From IMG/VR virus record IMGVR_UViG_642973577_000001, positions 1 to 64,000 of that record: a stretch of DNA of 64,000 nt; one strand, written 5' to 3'. Position 1 is the stretch's first letter, and every line of letters begins with the position of its first letter. The stretch is from a virus. Lineage: Duplodnaviria; Caudoviricetes. Shown piece by piece: positions 6,420 through 36,600 of the stretch. The notes beneath the pieces were generated by a model, which was not told the DNA's origin, made no database searches, and was given only the letters and a program-made list of their open reading frames with translations. A program made the position numbers and the translations under genes.

Positions 6420-6540
6420 GGGCAGCGACCTATATCCCAGAGTGGTGGCCACCGCTGGAAGGACGAACTGGTTGGTCGATCGAACCGCAGAGCGTGGCCA
6501 CGCCGAGCGGGTTGTGGGTTCGACTCCCACCTGCCTGCCA
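6420..6540 (+). ncRNA. tRNA-mimic ncRNA (121 nt) ending GCCA
   Basis: TACAAT at 6407-6412; acceptor GGGCAG/CTGCCT; T-arm GTGGG-TTCGACT-CCCAC; two GTGGCCAC-capped arms. Confidence 0.7.
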
Positions 6541-31021: not shown

Positions 31022-32374
31022 ATGACGTGGGGTGAGGTCGAGACCGGGCGCGATCGGTTCCTGGAGCGGCAGGCCATTGAGCAGCCGTGGCCGAACAACC
31101 GGTTCAACCCGGACCCGACCGACCCCTACGGCGAGCACTTCAACCCCGACCGTCCTCGGCTCAACCAGTTCCCGAGCGACTACGACTACGCCGACCACAG
31201 GCCGCTGCCGCACCCGTCTGATCCCGACGACGAGTGGACCGAGCTGAACACGGCCTGGCCGCGCACCCAGGAGCCGCACACGCTCTACCGGGGCATGCGC
31301 ATCGACCTGGACCACCCGATGTGGGCCAACCACCCGGACGTGCACGGTATGAAGCAGGTGTTGTTCGGCGAGCAGGCTCCCGGCGGCATGTTCGACGCCC
31401 AGGGCGTCCAGGGCACCAAGTACCCGCACCCGCAGTCGCCGGAGGGCAAGAAGTTCTCCGACCACCTGCTCAACTTCATGGAGGACGTCGGCCAGAACGT
31501 CCACAAGTACCGCGAGGACTACACCGACCAGAACGCCGACACCCGCGTCGACTTCACTAAGGTCCACGACAAGGCCGACCCGACCTGGCTCGGTCGGCAC
31601 TGGACCACCAACCCCGACGTCGCCGAAGACTTCGCGTTCCCCGGCCACGACGCCAAGCCCGCCAGCCGTGGCCTGAGCGTGATGCTCAGCGCCGACTGGG
31701 ACGGTCGCGGCGAGGACGTCGGACGGTCCAACGCCGGAGGCAGCTGGAAGGACGAGCAGGAGATCAACCTGCAGCCCGGTGCTGGCCTCAAGGTCCACGG
31801 CCTGGGCATCCGCCACCACGACGACTGGGACGACATGTACCAGGGCGAGCAGTGGCACAACGTCCTGCACACCCCGCAGATGCGATCGGCCAGCCTGCGC
31901 CGTCGTCCGCTGGCCATGGCCGACTACGACGAGTACGCGGGCCATCACCAGTCGCCTGGCCCGGAGACCGGCTGGCCTGCCTGGGACATGGCGGGCAAGC
32001 ACGGCACGTTTGGCGAGGACTTCGGCGGCGTGCCCGAGGACTGGTACACCCACCCGCACTACTACTCGGCGGGCGAGACCAGCAAGGGCGACCTGCGGCG
32101 CACCCAGAAGATCTACAACGACATGCACGGCAAGCCCGACCACCTGGTGGACGTCTACCGGGCGCTGCCGAGCCAGCACGCCACCCACTTCAACACGGGC
32201 GACTGGATCACCCACAGCCCCGAGTACGCCCAGCAGCACGCCGACAGCCAGGGCGACGGCACCTGGAGCGTCATGCGCGCCCAGGTCCCGGCCAAGCACC
32301 TGTACCACAACGGCGACAGCTACTACGAGATGGGCTATCACGGCCCGAAGGTGCCGGGGGTTGTGCACCCCTAG
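31022..32374 (+). CDS. Protein with two ADP-ribosyltransferase-like domains
   Basis: Domain 1 LYRG...HWTT...EQE; domain 2 VYRA...GDWIT..PEYA...E. Confidence 0.6.
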   Translation: MTWGEVETGRDRFLERQAIEQPWPNNRFNPDPTDPYGEHFNPDRPRLNQFPSDYDYADHRPLPHPSDPDDEWTELNTAWPRTQEPHTLYRGMRIDLDHPMWANHPDVHGMKQVLFGEQAPGGMFDAQGVQGTKYPHPQSPEGKKFSDHLLNFMEDVGQNVHKYREDYTDQNADTRVDFTKVHDKADPTWLGRHWTTNPDVAEDFAFPGHDAKPASRGLSVMLSADWDGRGEDVGRSNAGGSWKDEQEINLQPGAGLKVHGLGIRHHDDWDDMYQGEQWHNVLHTPQMRSASLRRRPLAMADYDEYAGHHQSPGPETGWPAWDMAGKHGTFGEDFGGVPEDWYTHPHYYSAGETSKGDLRRTQKIYNDMHGKPDHLVDVYRALPSQHATHFNTGDWITHSPEYAQQHADSQGDGTWSVMRAQVPAKHLYHNGDSYYEMGYHGPKVPGVVHP

Positions 32375-32465
32375 ATCGACCTGCTACAGTCGATCCCATG
32401 TTCGCACTCCTGAGTTTGTCATCCTCCCTACGACTTTCGTAGGTTGAGGGCGCTTGCCCTCTCCT

Positions 32466-32547
32466 GGAGGGTGAGTATCAGGTGATACAGCGAGATTGCT
32501 AATCCCGTACGGCTCATACCCGTGAGGTTCAAGTCCTCCTCCCTCCG
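32466..32547 (+). tRNA. tRNA-Ser(GCT)
   Basis: Cloverleaf; loop TT-GCT-AA; TTCAAGT T-loop; G73; no encoded CCA. Confidence 0.85.
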
Positions 32548-32562
32548 CGCAGCAGTACCGAT

Positions 32563-32645
32563 GGAAGATACCGCTAAGTGGCTGGCAACCGGCGTCGAAT
32601 ACCGGGGCGGGGTAACTCCTGGGGGTTCGATTCCTCTATCTTCCG
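32563..32645 (+). tRNA. tRNA-Ser(CGA)
   Basis: GGAAGAT/ATCTTCC acceptor; loop GT-CGA-AT; long variable arm; no CCA. Confidence 0.85.
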
Positions 32646-32661
32646 CGCAACAACTGAACAC

Positions 32662-32736
32662 GCCCCCGTGGGCAAATTGGCAAAGTCGCTGCACTCAGAC
32701 TGCAGAGTTTTCCGGGTTCGAGTCCCGGCGGGGGTA
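32662..32736 (+). tRNA. tRNA-Leu(CAG), short variable arm
   Basis: CTGCA-CT-CAG-AC-TGCAG; A73; no CCA. Confidence 0.9.
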
Positions 32737-32798
32737 CGTCGCACAATAGGTCCGTTATCGGACCCTTTGTGTTAATCGTCCCAGTTCAGGGGCGGTAT

Positions 32799-32871
32799 GG
32801 ACCGGTAGCCCAAAGGCAGAGGCAGCACGTTGAGGACGTGTCCAGTGCGGGTTCGACTCCCGCTCGGTCTA
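32799..32871 (+). tRNA. tRNA-Leu(GAG), short variable arm
   Basis: GCACG-TT-GAG-GA-CGTGT; A73; no CCA. Confidence 0.88.
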
Positions 32872-32872
32872 C

Positions 32873-32954
32873 GCTCCAGTGGCGTAATGGCAGCCGCGCC
32901 GCACTCAAAATGCGGTGTCCGTAGGACGTGCGAGTTCGAGTCTCGCCTGGAGTA
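32873..32954 (+). tRNA. tRNA-Leu(CAA)
   Basis: CCGCA-CT-CAA-AA-TGCGG; long variable arm; no CCA. Confidence 0.92.
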
Positions 32955-33035
32955 CGCAAACCCTGTAGTATGGCTATAGTGAGATCCATAGTTGACAGGG
33001 CCGCACGGCCTCGTGCTACAGTCGGAGGCGTGTAG

Positions 33036-33392
33036 GTGACAAGAGAGTCCAACCCCGACAAGCTGTATATCGCTGTCCGGGCCGACATCGCCCCCGGTCT
33101 CCAGACCGCGCAGGCGTGCCACGCAGCCTTCCAGTTCTACCACGAGCACCCCGAGCTGACTCGTGAGTGGATTCGCACCTCGAACTTCATCGTCATCGTG
33201 AACGTGGAGAACGAGGAGCAACTCATCACCCTGGCCACCGACGCCCGTCTGGGCGAGGGCCTTGCCGTCTCGATGGTGAACGAGCCGGATCTGGGCGACG
33301 AGTACACCGCAATCGCGATCGAGGCCGGTGAGACGGCCTCGGCGCTGTGCGCCAGCTTCCCGCTGTGCCTGCGGAACGCATTCACCTACTGA
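33036..33392 (+). CDS. Pth2-like (PTRHD1-type) peptidyl-tRNA hydrolase family protein
   Basis: LYIAVRADI, AQACHAA, EPDLG..TAIAI; TTGACA...TGCTACAGT promoter upstream. Confidence 0.8.
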   Translation: MTRESNPDKLYIAVRADIAPGLQTAQACHAAFQFYHEHPELTREWIRTSNFIVIVNVENEEQLITLATDARLGEGLAVSMVNEPDLGDEYTAIAIEAGETASALCASFPLCLRNAFTY

Positions 33393-33396
33393 GCTT

Positions 33397-33430
33397 GTCG
33401 GGGGAGGGGTCAAAGCCTCCCCCGGCACCA
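33397..33430 (+). ncRNA. tRNA minihelix 1 (34 nt, ACCA end)
   Basis: 11-bp stem, loop GGTCAAAG, 3' ACCA. Confidence 0.75.
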
Positions 33431-33431
33431 G

Positions 33432-33485
33432 CGGGGCGACCGGTGTGAGGCCGGTCTGGAGGTTCGAGTCCTCCCGCCCCGACCA
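33432..33485 (+). ncRNA. D-armless tRNA-like RNA (54 nt, ACCA end)
   Basis: CGGGGCG/CGCCCCG acceptor, 5-bp arm with 7-nt loop TGTGAGG, canonical T-arm, ACCA. Confidence 0.75.
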
Positions 33486-33486
33486 T

Positions 33487-33520
33487 GCCCCGGCTGGGGT
33501 CAAAGCCAGCCGGGGCACCA
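33487..33520 (+). ncRNA. tRNA minihelix 2 (34 nt, ACCA end)
   Basis: Perfect 11-bp stem, same loop GGTCAAAG, 3' ACCA. Confidence 0.75.
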
Positions 33521-33521
33521 A

Positions 33522-33592
33522 GCGAGATTGGTCTGGTGACCTAGCGAGCTTCTAAACCTCGCGATCGACCGGTTCGACTCCGGTATCTCGCG
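33522..33592 (+). tRNA. tRNA with CTA anticodon (Pyl-like/amber)
   Basis: GCGAGAT/ATCTCGC acceptor, 1-nt linker, minimal D-arm, loop TT-CTA-AA, G73. Confidence 0.75.
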
Positions 33593-33595
33593 CAA

Positions 33596-33632
33596 CACTG
33601 TAGAAGCCCTCAGTAGCTTCCAGAAGAGGTGA
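33596..33632 (+). promoter_or_regulatory. Putative late promoter
   Basis: CACTG-N22-GAAGAGGTGA. Confidence 0.6.
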
Positions 33633-33660
33633 CACACCATCTACTGGAAGTAGGCAGGGA

Positions 33661-36600
33661 ATGAGTGACTTCGGACTGTTCGAGGCGGATACAGACGCCC
33701 AGCAGGCACCGCAGCGGCAGCAGCGTCAGGCAGCCAACAAGCTGGCCAACGCCATCTACGACGTCCGGGACCAGTACGGGCCGTTCCTGATGGGCAGCAC
33801 CGGCAAGGACGAGTTCGAGGATCGCTGGCACCACGCCAAGACCGACATCCGCAAGACCGTCGAGGCCGCTGGCGCGTTCCCCAACACCGGAGTCATGCGC
33901 CGCATCCACAACGCGATGAAGCGCGAGTTCGTGGCCACTCTCGGCGACGACAACAGCGACGACCCGACCAAGAAGCCGAAGGACGACGGCGACAAGGCCC
34001 GGACGATCAACGACTCGCAGTACAAGAAGGTCCAGGACGGCGATCCGAGCGTCAAGGACGACGTGAAGACCAACACCGGAGACGGCTCTGACGCCGAAGG
34101 CCGTAATCCGTCGTCGACCACTGGCCCGCAGGGTGACCCCCGTGACTCCGGCCCGGAGCGCAAGAAGAGTAGCCGTCGCCACGCTGCGGGCGAGAACGGT
34201 GACGAGGGTCCTTTCGGGTCTGACCCCAGGAAGTGCAGCCATGAGAACAGTGAACCGCTGGGCAATGGCCAGAAGGAGTGCTACGACTGCGGCGAGATCG
34301 TCAAGACCGGACGCCGCTACGCCGAGAACTTCGACGGCGACCTGGTGCCCAAGGGCAACTTCGACGCCTACCTGGACTCGGTGGACAACGGCGGACCGGA
34401 GAAGGTCCAGCGCAACTTCACCGACGGCGACGACAGCGGCGAGGACAAGCCGTCCAGCCGCGAGGCCCGTCGGCTGGCCGTGGACCTGTACAAGGACTTC
34501 GCCGAGGCCAACGGCCTGCGCGAGGCCAAGCTGTCGACGCTGGACCACTACGCCGACACCGGCATCGACGACTCCACCTACTTCATGCTCGCGAACCTCA
34601 TCCGCCAGGCGGACGAGAACTGCGACTGCGACGATGACGAGGACACCGACGGTCCTGGCGGCTCGGACAGCGACAGCGACGGTCCGCCGAAGGGTGCCGC
34701 CGAGAAGGGTGGCGAGTCGTCGTCGGATGACGACAGCGAGGACGACGGTGGCTCGGACAGCGATTCGGGTGACGACGACGCACCAGAGTCCGACGGAGGT
34801 TCGGATGATGGTGGCGAGAACCCGTTCGCGGAGAGCGACTCGGATTCGGATGCGCCTTCGGAGGACGCCGGTCCTTCGGCGGACGATGCGGGACCGGCTG
34901 GTGATCCTCAGGCTCCGCCTGGCCCACCTGACCTCGGTCCTGAGGACGGCGGCGATCCTGCTGGGCTGGAAGCCCCGCCCGGACCGCCGTCGCTGGACGA
35001 CGCGCCGCCGCTCGCGCAGGACGACTTCTCGGGTGTCGACGAGCTGACCCCCGACGCCGCTGGCCAGCTGCCACCGGACACCGAGCTGGTGCAGGTCGAG
35101 CAGATCGAGGACGCCCTGGGCCTGCCTCCGGGCACCCTGGAGCAGCTGCTGGCCGACAGCATCGCGCACGGCGGTCCGCCACAGCCACACGGCGCAGGAC
35201 CCGTCGCGAGCCGCAGGTACGTGGCTTTCGGAGAAGGGGCTGACCCGGCTGCCGGGGGTCAGGCTGTAGCTCCGGCTGCCCCCGCACCGGCTGCCGCGCC
35301 CGCTCCGGCCATGCCAGGCCCGGACGACGGCGCTCTCCTGGACCAGGCCAGCCAGGCTGTGACCAACCTGGTGGACCAGAAGACCCAGGAGTACCAGACC
35401 ATCATCGACCCGCTGCAGCAGGCGCTGCAGGCGATTCAGTTCGCCCAGCAGGTCGAGCAGGCAGCCAACCCGCTGGACGTCACCCCGCCTGAGGGCACGG
35501 TCGACGTCAACCCGCAGTCTGCGGTCGACCCGGCTGCCGAGGCCCAGGCCGCGAGCATCCAGGCACCGGCACCACAGACGTCGGCTGGTCCGCCGCCTCC
35601 GGGACCGGGAGGAATGCCCGCGCCTGCTCCGGCACCAGCCGGTGGTGACAGCGGTGGCTCCAGCGAGTCCGACAGCGGCGAGAAGAAGGAGTCGTCGCGT
35701 CAGCTCGATCTGCGCCGCCACGCCTTCAAGCTGGCCCAGTACTGGGGTCTGAGCGAGCAGGGCTACCAGACGGTCCTGGCCGCGATGAGCCGCAAGCACT
35801 ACCAGCACGTGGCCGAGGCCATCCAGACGCTGCCGCCGGAGCACCGGATGGGCATCGCCGCCAGCCTGGCCGACATGTTCAGCACCGATAACGTGCGGTT
35901 CAACACCGGCCAGTTCATGGCCAGCGCGGGCGTGCCGATGGGCGCGGATGCCATCCACATGGCCAAGAGCACTGACGACTTCCATACCTACAACGATCGC
36001 GGTGGAGAACCCGGCGACTACGAGCGCAACAACCGGGGCTATAGCGACGTCGGTAACGGTATGGTCCAGGACTGGGAGACCGGCGAGGTCTACCCGCATC
36101 CGGGCAAGAAGGCCAGGGTGGCTGCCAACCCCGCCGACCGTGCCGGTGACCGCTGGCGCGACGGCAAGGACCGGGCCTCGGCGGACGCCGAGGAGTACGA
36201 CACCGACCCAGACAACTGGGAGGAGCGCGAGGCCGCACGCCTCGGACTCCGGCAGGGGAGCCGCCGCCCTTTCGTCATTAGGTCGAGGACGACGGGAGGT
36301 GGACGCACGGCTGGAGAGACCTGGAAGCCGCCGGGTGGGGGTCAAGCTCTCGATGCGTTCGAGTTCCCCGGCCAGGGCGAGAAGGCCGAGTTCAGCGACA
36401 ACATGAAGATCAACGACCTGCCTGGCCAGAAGGCCAAGTCGGCGGGCGTGGTCGAGGACTTCCAGCGGTTCGACAAGCGTCGCGCCGAGCAGGGTCTCAA
36501 CGTCGGCGGTGAGGGCGAGGTCGACTCCTTCCTGCAGAACAAGAAGGTCGGCCCACGCGCCCAGGACAAGCTGCACGAGGAGATCGGTCTACAGCCGCAC

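Follow-up and report, generated by a model that had tools for sequence, protein, structure and literature searches.

What does a mycobacteriophage keep between its Pth2-like gene and its CUA tRNA, and why would it keep it there? The question is raised by the window, that is, the whole stretch of 64,000 nucleotides analyzed here, which is the first 64 kb of the 164,602-bp phage genome G000 (IMG/VR record IMGVR_UViG_642973577_000001). At this place the window carries an array of three small elements, each ending in an encoded CCA: two 34-nt hairpins, named hp1 and hp3, that resemble a tRNA acceptor/T-arm minihelix, and between them el2, a 54-nt tRNA-like RNA without a D arm. The array had been noticed in an initial annotation of the DNA, which placed four RNAs, the last being the CUA tRNA, behind the stop codon of the Pth2-like gene with single-nucleotide spacers between them; this layout agrees base for base with the sequence. 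The three elements are very probably real RNAs maintained by selection, and we tentatively favor for them a function in trans as mimics of the tRNA acceptor arm. The closest public relatives of the window are the Myrnavirus phages Phabba (locus L001; about 85% identity over the region) and ScoobyDoobyDoo (L002; about 72%). For wider comparison the cluster C1 phages Bxz1, IkeLoa, and Tonenili and a number of IMG/VR contigs were gathered using the Pth2 protein as bait.

Folding with RNAfold reproduced the structures that had been proposed. Both hp1 and hp3 form 11 bp closed by the same 8-nt loop, GGUCAAAG, and followed by ACCA (dG −25.8 and −28.3, respectively). The el2 fold (dG −32.1) lacks a D arm: its 7-bp acceptor stem, which is followed by ACCA, encloses a canonical T arm and one further arm that can be drawn as 5 bp with a 7-nt loop or, as in the minimum free energy (MFE) structure, as 6 bp with a 5-nt loop. 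The MFE of the region from 33393 to 33600 is −117.7 kcal/mol versus −89.2 ± 4.5 in 200 shuffles, none of which was as stable (z = −6.4), and each element forms its own local fold within the MFE structure of the whole stretch. The generic pattern of a hairpin of at least 9 pairs followed by NCCA is not enriched in the genome as a whole, with 17 matches compared to 7 to 20 in 20 Markov simulations, and an unrelated chance match lies within coding sequence at 1219-1252 of the window. The case for the array therefore rests on position, on the G+C-rich perfect stems, on the shared loop and on conservation.

None of the three elements is a tRNA by the usual definition, since hp1 and hp3 are a single helix and el2 lacks the D arm. 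They also differ from the tRNA-like domain (TLD) of transfer-messenger RNA (tmRNA): position 3:70 is C-G or G-C in hp1, el2 and hp3, with no G3.U70, none of the Rfam tmRNA models matched the array, and ARAGORN found no tmRNA in the genome. Likewise, the YrlA model RF02553 gave no match between 33300 and 33700 at E values up to 10. The RNA of type III toxin-antitoxin systems (ToxI) is made of tandem near-identical repeats that are cut by the partner toxin and encoded before the toxin gene; the units of the array differ from each other in sequence and length and sit behind the gene.

As the initial annotation had supposed, the elements escape the standard tools. There was no ARAGORN call within 33397-33520, no Rfam match at the gathering threshold, and no match to RF00005 either when the whole genome was searched with this model or when Rfam was applied to the array at E values up to 10. 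The latter search, run on the arrays of the window and of Bxz1, returned sub-threshold noise only (tRNA-Sec at 24.3 bits, mascRNA at 16.8, YrlA at 14.8, and miRNA models), the mascRNA score belonging to el2 with an E value of 0.9. The sole exception is the public record of Phabba, in which an 86-nt 'tRNA-OTHER (NNN)' is annotated (L001 2499-2584) that begins at base 3 of hp1 and ends together with el2. The tRNA-Sec model aligns to the corresponding stretch of the window, 33397-33483, with its 24.3 bits to be compared to a gathering score of 47, and a perfect 7-bp pairing is indeed possible between the 5′ strand of hp1 (33397-33403) and the 3′ strand of el2 (33477-33483). This long-range pairing is lost in ScoobyDoobyDoo, where the local hairpin is retained through compensatory changes. 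Judged from these sequences, the Phabba annotation is a mis-call of two separate CCA-ended elements and the same artefact as the tRNA-Sec alignment. The encoded CCA sets the array apart from the tRNAs of this phage: it is found in none of the five tRNAs that ARAGORN identifies in the window and in two of the 36 in the genome. This contrast had been pointed out before, although with a count of six full-length tRNAs where ARAGORN finds five.

Selection is visible in the comparison with Phabba, in which 123 of 123 array bases are identical, with no substitution, and only the spacer G33431 is lost. Between these two phages pth2 shows 84.6% identity and differs at 42 of its 119 third codon positions, and identity in the CUA tRNA is 65%. 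Contigs from three of the four metagenome runs compared (X2, X3, and X4) likewise lack the spacer base 33431. The layout itself extends much further. The C1 phages have pth2 within the main tRNA cluster, at about 92-97 kb and not at 33 kb, and there too a row of tRNA-like RNAs that end in CCA and have no anticodon comes next, with a CUA tRNA behind it. The same layout is found in L007, L008, L011, L013, L014, L017, and L028, whose Pth2 proteins are 46-81% identical to that of the window. L014 repeats the architecture of the window in full: two 34-nt hairpins, the second with the loop UGUCAAAG, flank a 53-nt D-armless tRNA-like RNA, and the CUA tRNA follows.

Apart from the unrelated match in coding sequence, a hairpin scan of all loci yielded ten distinct minihelices, every one of them located between pth2 and the CUA tRNA or, in the case of L017, between two CUA tRNAs. 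Nine, coming from five phage lineages, are exactly 34 nt long; the tenth, that of L002, has 35 nt and was omitted from the ungapped alignment of the others (alignment A2) to avoid a gap. All 99 stem cells of A2 are paired, a figure that is partly built in because the scan requires pairing; this circularity does not extend to the constant length, the position, or the loop letters. Changes on both sides are seen in 10 of the 11 pairs, none of 500 shuffles equaled this result, and registers slid by 1 to 3 columns pair in at most 53.5% of the cells. G1-C72 and the CCA are invariant, and the discriminator N73 is A in seven minihelices and U in two. The loops (GGUCAAAG, UGUCAAAG, GGUAAAAG, CGUCAAAC, and CCUCAAAA) have an invariant A16 and a U-C-A-A-A core, unlike UUCRANY. 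The definition of an acceptor/T-arm minihelix is matched only roughly: all nine end in NCCA, the helix measures 11-13 bp, the loop 4-8 nt, and the hairpin 30 nt instead of 31. Several composite, multi-element candidates (e.g., L003 1654-1757, 1639-1773, and 1743-1874; L007 1983-2114; L008 2037-2097 and 2043-2142; L014 1842-1958 and 1842-1961; L002 2494-2582; L011 1842-1891) were dropped because the single elements inside them explain them. Separately, L007 (1877-1981) and L008 (1958-2062) each have an element of roughly 105 nt whose acceptor stem is tRNA-like and whose T arm is imperfect; it lacks CCA and is followed by one C and then by a 34-nt CCA minihelix of the GUUG type.

The acceptor stems recur in a defined order. 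Bxz1, with a Pth2 55% identical to that of the window, has elements with acceptors GCCGGAG (76 nt), GCCCCGG (65 nt), and GGGAGAG (58 nt), all with A73-CCA, while L014, with a Pth2 46% identical, has GCCGGGU (34 nt), GCCCCUG (53 nt), and GGGAGAG (34 nt), on bodies unrelated to those of Bxz1. The hairpin hp3 is the Bxz1 stem GCCCCGG around a 16-nt body, and near variants of its acceptor close 53-70-nt elements in L002, L005, L008, L014, and L017. As for hp1, it belongs to a recurring type with a U2.G71 wobble, U.G being the commonest 2:71 pair (five of nine minihelices), and its positional orthologues in L002 and L007 retain the hairpin despite changes on both sides. On these sequence comparisons the conserved part of the elements is the acceptor end, and the minihelices are shortened forms of longer CCA-ended tRNA-like RNAs that have the same acceptor stems in relatives. 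The earlier proposal of selection on structure is thus borne out by the Phabba identity, by the covariation, and by the order of acceptor types kept in Bxz1 and L014.

CCA-ended elements are present at 13 of 25 Pth2 loci, and on the Pth2 tree these loci cluster: the distribution requires 2 changes compared to 8.6 in shuffles, none of 500 being as low. The labels used were read by inspection of the loci, less closely for L027 and L031, and L036 (a tRNA-like element), L038 (a 176-nt structured RNA), and L015 (a hairpin), all lacking CCA, were labeled as without. Such clustering fits one or two origins followed by long co-inheritance with pth2. Taken with the conserved acceptor end and the covariation, it speaks against both decayed tRNA remnants and hairpins whose helices alone are of importance.

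How the RNAs could be released is suggested by their ends. According to passages of PMC11143913, hairpins built from an acceptor stem, a T stem, and a T loop are cleaved at the canonical site by bacterial ribonuclease P (RNase P), the 12-bp acceptor/T stack serves as its ruler, the 3′ RCCA pairs with the GGU of P15 in the RNase P RNA, and C at position −1 is frequent in mycobacteria. The sequence features of such a substrate are present in the minihelices: G1-C72 in nine of nine, T or C at −1 in ten of ten, and A (7) or U (2) as N73. At −1 the ten distinct minihelices have T in seven cases and C in three; the 36 real tRNAs of the phage have T in 25, C in five, A in three, and G in three, and T makes up 14.9% of the genome. 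The elements of the array are probably excised by RNase P, which would cleave at the 5′ end of each one, and, as the spacers are of 0-1 nt, a cut at one element would leave its upstream neighbor ending at the encoded CCA or one base past it. The encoding of CCA may be explained because a minimal hairpin without the tRNA elbow would depend on the RCCA contact, while full tRNAs can await the CCA-adding enzyme. The single-base spacers (G33431, T33486, and A33521) are not special in themselves, since the real tRNAs of this phage are separated by gaps of 0-5 nt in several places.

Our favored reading, held at somewhat less than an even chance, is that of trans-acting acceptor-arm mimics. The three elements would be genes for small, stable, anticodon-less 'top-half' tRNA mimics, likely co-transcribed with the Pth2-like gene and the CUA tRNA. 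Once released, the 34- and 54-nt RNAs would act in trans through the acceptor stem, the discriminator, the CCA and the T-loop-like loop. Their target would be a protein with sequence-specific recognition of tRNA acceptor ends, for which they would serve as ligands, competitors, or decoys. Candidate partners are a host aminoacyl-tRNA synthetase, the co-inherited Pth2-like enzyme or another member of its pathway, and a defense toxin of the MenT/AbiE or CapRel/PhRel type that would modify tRNA ends, although any one of them, named singly, is at best an unlikely guess. A decoy for tRNA-targeting defenses was one of the two functions proposed in the initial annotation. We prefer the reading of acceptor-arm mimics because cutting marks would not require the degree of sequence conservation that is seen in the acceptor end and the loop, and because such marks are dispensable, the CUA tRNA of some relatives being found 16-84 nt behind pth2 with no such element in between (L039, L026, and L036).

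The latter two points bear directly on the main alternative, that the elements are processing punctuation and nothing else, i.e., RNase P cutting marks and 3′-end caps that separate the pth2 mRNA from the suppressor tRNA and define where neighboring RNAs of the tightly packed array end, the excised pieces being functionless. The G1-C72 pair, the pyrimidine at −1, the RCCA and the 0-1-nt spacing all fit it, in the light of what passages of PMC11143913 describe, and at most loci having such elements an NCCA-ended one lies within 0-1 nt of the CUA tRNA. However, the CUA tRNA is itself an RNase P substrate, one mark would suffice where two to five are present, and a cut 5′ of hp1 would strip the pth2 mRNA of a protecting hairpin; for these reasons, and in view of the conserved letters, we consider it unlikely that punctuation is the whole function. 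A different possibility, the other function proposed in the initial annotation, is that the minihelices are charged, so that host synthetases aminoacylate them and the aminoacyl- or peptidyl-minihelices then become substrates of Pth2, for instance as codon-independent acceptors of nascent chains at ribosomes stalled on UAG or at mRNA ends. The three conserved acceptor identities with their discriminator do resemble synthetase identity sets, el2 has C1-G72 and A73 as in tRNA-Pro, Pth2-like genes accompany RNAs of the A site (the CUA tRNA at most loci, a permuted tmRNA in L018), and some synthetases charge minihelices, as stated in parts of PMC9976931. On the other hand, none of the known acceptor-only identity marks, such as G3.U70 or G-1, is present, no stem exactly reproduces a host-like one, and the nearest host-like stems (Pro, Arg, and Leu) lie outside the minihelix-charging identities named in those parts of PMC9976931 (Cys, Ala, His, and human Lys). 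Charging is therefore improbable. Equally doubtful is the fuller version in which each acceptor type would be recognized by a specific synthetase or by the Pth2-like enzyme and the charged or bound minihelices would operate together with Pth2 and the suppressor tRNA where ribosomes have halted at UAG or on a broken mRNA.

The elements could also be vestiges, i.e., tRNA genes that suffered internal deletions (el2 from a tRNA-Pro-like gene) and now drift without function. This would account for the size series in relatives, which runs from 58-77-nt tRNA-like RNAs down to 34-nt hairpins with the same acceptor stems, for the state of IkeLoa, where CCA is partly lost and a fourth element is missing, and for loops that resemble a T loop with one base altered. 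Drift is nevertheless difficult to reconcile with an array free of substitutions beside a pth2 gene in which about one third of the third positions differ, with covarying stems that have not one broken pair, with a length of 34 nt kept constant in five lineages, and with a CCA that is encoded when 34 of the 36 real phage tRNAs do without it. A decay of tRNAs, which the initial annotation had named as a possible refutation, is accordingly very improbable on the grounds of array identity, covariation, and constant length. The same annotation had named terminators. These or attenuators, or else a single odd tRNA of 86-87 nt formed by hp1 and el2 as in the Phabba record, could be suspected from the G+C-rich stems, the alignment of the tRNA-Sec model, and the tRNA annotated at that place in Phabba. 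Each stem of the array is, however, followed by ACCA and the next element and not by a T tract; a consensus terminator scan from 32300 to 33800 found a single terminator-like site, at 32749-32764, outside the array, and none at the array; and the CUA tRNA that is needed lies downstream of the hairpins. With a tRNA-Sec score that is far under the gathering score and a long-range pairing that is given up in L002 while the local hairpin is kept, we regard both versions as hardly tenable.

Several facts weigh against the acceptor-arm mimics that we favor. Exact mimicry of host-like acceptor stems was assessed by comparing the 7 + 7 stem bases plus N73 to the 46 tRNAs of a Mycolicibacterium genome, used as a surrogate host and not M. 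smegmatis, and no acceptor stem in this surrogate set is copied exactly, the best agreement being 13 of 15 positions. This value was reached by el2 with tRNA-Pro, with which it has C1-G72 and A73 in common and from which it differs in one base pair, and by hp3 with tRNA-Arg and tRNA-Leu(UAA); the best match of hp1 was 11 of 15. Neither is there an exact stem copy among the phage's own 36 tRNAs, where the best is 12 of 15. The 30-nt hairpin can be drawn as 11 bp + 8, 12 + 6, or 13 + 4, which is not the canonical 12 bp + 7. The full identity of the array with that of Phabba could in principle be due to recent exchange, as a tRNA-Ser is also 100% identical, and the minihelices of A2 owe part of their complete pairing to the way they were chosen. 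Twelve of the 25 Pth2 loci do without CCA-ended elements, and in IkeLoa two elements show partial loss of CCA. Finally, the public runs that include the stretch are metagenome contigs only, which cannot show RNA ends, strand, or level.

The array has partial parallels among known systems. Closest in form are the synthetic acceptor/T minihelices (described in passages of PMC11143913 and PMC9976931), which like the array consist of one continuous helix of about 12 bp with a T-loop-like loop, a discriminator and CCA; G1-C72 and a pyrimidine at −1 are common to good RNase P substrates and to the phage minihelices. The synthetic minihelices are laboratory constructs, employed with RNase P, the CCA-adding enzyme, and synthetases, whereas the array elements are natural genes conserved in phages, their hairpin has 30 nt versus 31, their loop departs from UUCRANY, and their stems match no known tRNA exactly. 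Phage T5 has two RNAs (RNA1 and RNA2, annotated in NC_005859 as 'tRNA-like stable RNA with unknown functions') that resemble the array in being non-decoding, in having tRNA-like ends, and in belonging to a phage tRNA cluster, as do other stable RNAs of the T5 tRNA region and the species 1 and 2 RNAs of phage T4. Unlike the array, the T5 RNAs measure 125-144 nt, retain a larger portion of the tRNA body, and do not encode CCA, and within the stretch of NC_005859 inspected they are not linked to pth2, which the array RNAs adjoin. The TLD-only tmRNA of mycobacteriophage DS6A (parts of PMC4131195) is, as the array, phage-encoded, CCA-ended, tRNA-like, and without an anticodon, but the array has no G3.U70, no D-loop analogue and no tag frame, and a true permuted tmRNA is found in the same position in L018. 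Further RNase P-cut, CCA-bearing tRNA mimics are YrlA of M. smegmatis, a Y RNA with a tRNA-like module (passages of PMC4201824), and mascRNA/MEN-beta (RF01684). YrlA shows that host tRNA enzymes accept tRNA mimics; its CCA is added after cleavage and it binds Ro60, as those passages of PMC4201824 relate, while the CCA of the array is encoded. A further parallel is offered by phages that have suppressor tRNAs of their own, whether their stop codons are recoded or their code is normal. One of the latter, XacN1, encodes a CUA tRNA, like the window, and also a peptidyl-tRNA hydrolase (parts of PMC5852040), and its authors state in that portion of the article that no gene was identified as the target of its suppressor tRNAs; in the window TAG heads one gene beside the tRNA, and additional non-decoding RNAs are present. 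The array RNAs can be classed as a variant of the poorly understood tRNA-mimic RNAs of phages. The claim that nothing of the kind had been described held up, in that a search of the full-text literature, which leaves supplementary files with their possible tRNA tables outside its reach, retrieved no description of genomically encoded CCA-ended minihelices, nor, for cluster C phages, of anything located between pth2 and the CUA tRNA.

Acceptor/T minihelices have so far been known as test-tube substrates and as a hypothetical tRNA ancestor. Here 34-nt forms that encode their CCA appear to be maintained by selection, both in distant uncultured phages and in mycobacteriophages of clusters C1 and C2. 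The latter are cultured and genetically tractable, which makes the cellular role of a lone tRNA top half directly testable. Such a role could point to a new level at which phage and host compete over the 3′ end of tRNA, or to an additional component of the Pth2/suppressor-tRNA cassette; a system of charged or bound mini-acceptors, if true, would be the first biological use of the tRNA 'top half' alone. For annotation, genes of this kind are missed or mis-called by standard tools, as illustrated by the 86-nt 'tRNA-OTHER' of Phabba.

Table 1. Location of the array and of the other features of its cassette in the window.
Feature	Position	Strand	Characteristics
Possible promoter	32992..33022	+	TTGACA 32992-32997, 19-nt spacer, TG-n-TACAGT 33014-33022; lead only
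GTG start and immediate in-frame TAG ('amber gate')	33030-33035	+	annotated start GTG 33036 directly after
Pth2-like open reading frame (118 amino acids)	33036-33392	+	stop TGA 33390-33392, then GCTT
hp1, 34-nt minihelix	33397-33430	+	acceptor type GUCGGGG with U2.G71, loop GGUCAAAG, A73, CCA; base −1 is U
el2, 54-nt D-armless tRNA-like RNA	33432-33485	+	acceptor CGGGGCG, C1-G72, A73, arm loop UGUGAGG, canonical T arm, ACCA
hp3, 34-nt minihelix	33487-33520	+	acceptor type GCCCCGG, loop GGUCAAAG, A73, CCA; base −1 is U
CUA tRNA (amber suppressor)	33522-33593	+	ARAGORN; CCA not encoded; atypical

The array is part of a wider cassette that consists of a TAG-gated pth2 gene and its own CUA tRNA (Table 1). 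The initial annotation, sound as to structures and selection, had overlooked the in-frame TAG before the pth2 core, the wide distribution of the cassette, and the longer tRNA-like forms in relatives. The product of 33036-33392 is a Pth2 homologue judged by family profile and predicted fold. The reading frame scores 35.9 bits against PF01981 of Pfam (cut-off 23), and all seven matches of a profile search of solved structures are Pth2, archaeal and human chains, with E values of 2e-9 to 1e-5. The predicted structure, with a predicted local distance difference test score (pLDDT) of 89.9, gave Foldseek template modeling (TM) scores of 0.70-0.76 to the archaeal and human Pth2 structures 2zv3, 1q7s, and 3erj.

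Nucleotides 33030-33038 of the window read GTG-TAG-GTG. The stop codon directly 5′ of the Pth2 core is TAG in 18 of the 19 rows compared (16 of 17 distinct records) and never TAA or TGA, while pth2 itself ends in TGA or TAA in every one of the same 19 rows. In most rows the TAG comes 0-4 codons after a start codon, with a longer upstream open reading frame instead in L015. Of ten additional loci, seven have TAG as the preceding stop, two of them being doubtful cases (L031 and L037, where it is far from or inside the core), and three have TGA (L027, L038, and L039), so that the gate is common but not universal. Read-through would be needed in the distant loci L011 and L013-L017, which have no start codon after the TAG. 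The window and its close relatives have GGAGG 7 nt before GTG 33036, a second start at once after the TAG, and there the gate may be bypassed or optional. The putative promoter motif ends 7 nt ahead of GTG 33030, and a hexamer resembling a −10 box recurs 6-7 nt ahead of the first start codon in relatives. It is possible that this motif starts the RNA at about 33029-33030, which would generate a leaderless GUG-UAG mRNA. A consensus promoter scan, which allowed spacers of 16-18 nt, found none and thus did not call the TTGACA/TACAGT motif.

The CUA tRNA is atypical in that its D stem, of 4 bp and closed by a 4-nt loop, is separated from the acceptor stem by one base and nine bases of the anticodon loop are unpaired in the MFE structure. 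It was missed by RF00005 in the whole-genome search, and Rfam gives only tRNA-Sec at 32.7 bits, below threshold; its acceptor stem differs from locus to locus. L018 has a Pth2-like gene with neither TAG gate nor CUA tRNA, and directly behind it, at 1875-2155, lies a permuted tmRNA (RF04321, 125 bits) that ARAGORN missed. The C1 phages have a tmRNA 4.7 kb downstream of pth2 in the same tRNA cluster. Phage Pth2-like genes thus travel with RNAs that enter the ribosomal A site without a sense codon, the CUA tRNA at most loci and tmRNA in L018.

The C1 tmRNA is located between tRNA-Arg(cct) and tRNA-Gln(ttg), which in G000 are 32 nt apart with no tmRNA called by ARAGORN; just upstream of this pair G000 has a 524-nt gap without a called gene (95636-96159). 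Two other odd tRNA-like genes in the main tRNA cluster of G000 are a 29.1-bit match to RF00005 that ARAGORN does not call (91933-92000) and a 'tRNA-???' of ARAGORN with a two-base anticodon call (94710-94781). Elsewhere in the window, a 121-nt stretch at 6420-6540 has a perfect T arm and a G-CCA end; its MFE is no better than that of shuffles (z = −0.07), and Rfam returned nothing above noise for it. Between the CUA tRNA and the downstream gene of 1296 codons, nucleotides 33596-33655 include a conserved motif, ACTGTAGAAG..., followed by an inverted repeat around CTTCCAGAAG / CTGGAAG; it is also found in L001, L002, and L007, and a related CTGTAG motif is located ahead of the cassette at 32963-32968.

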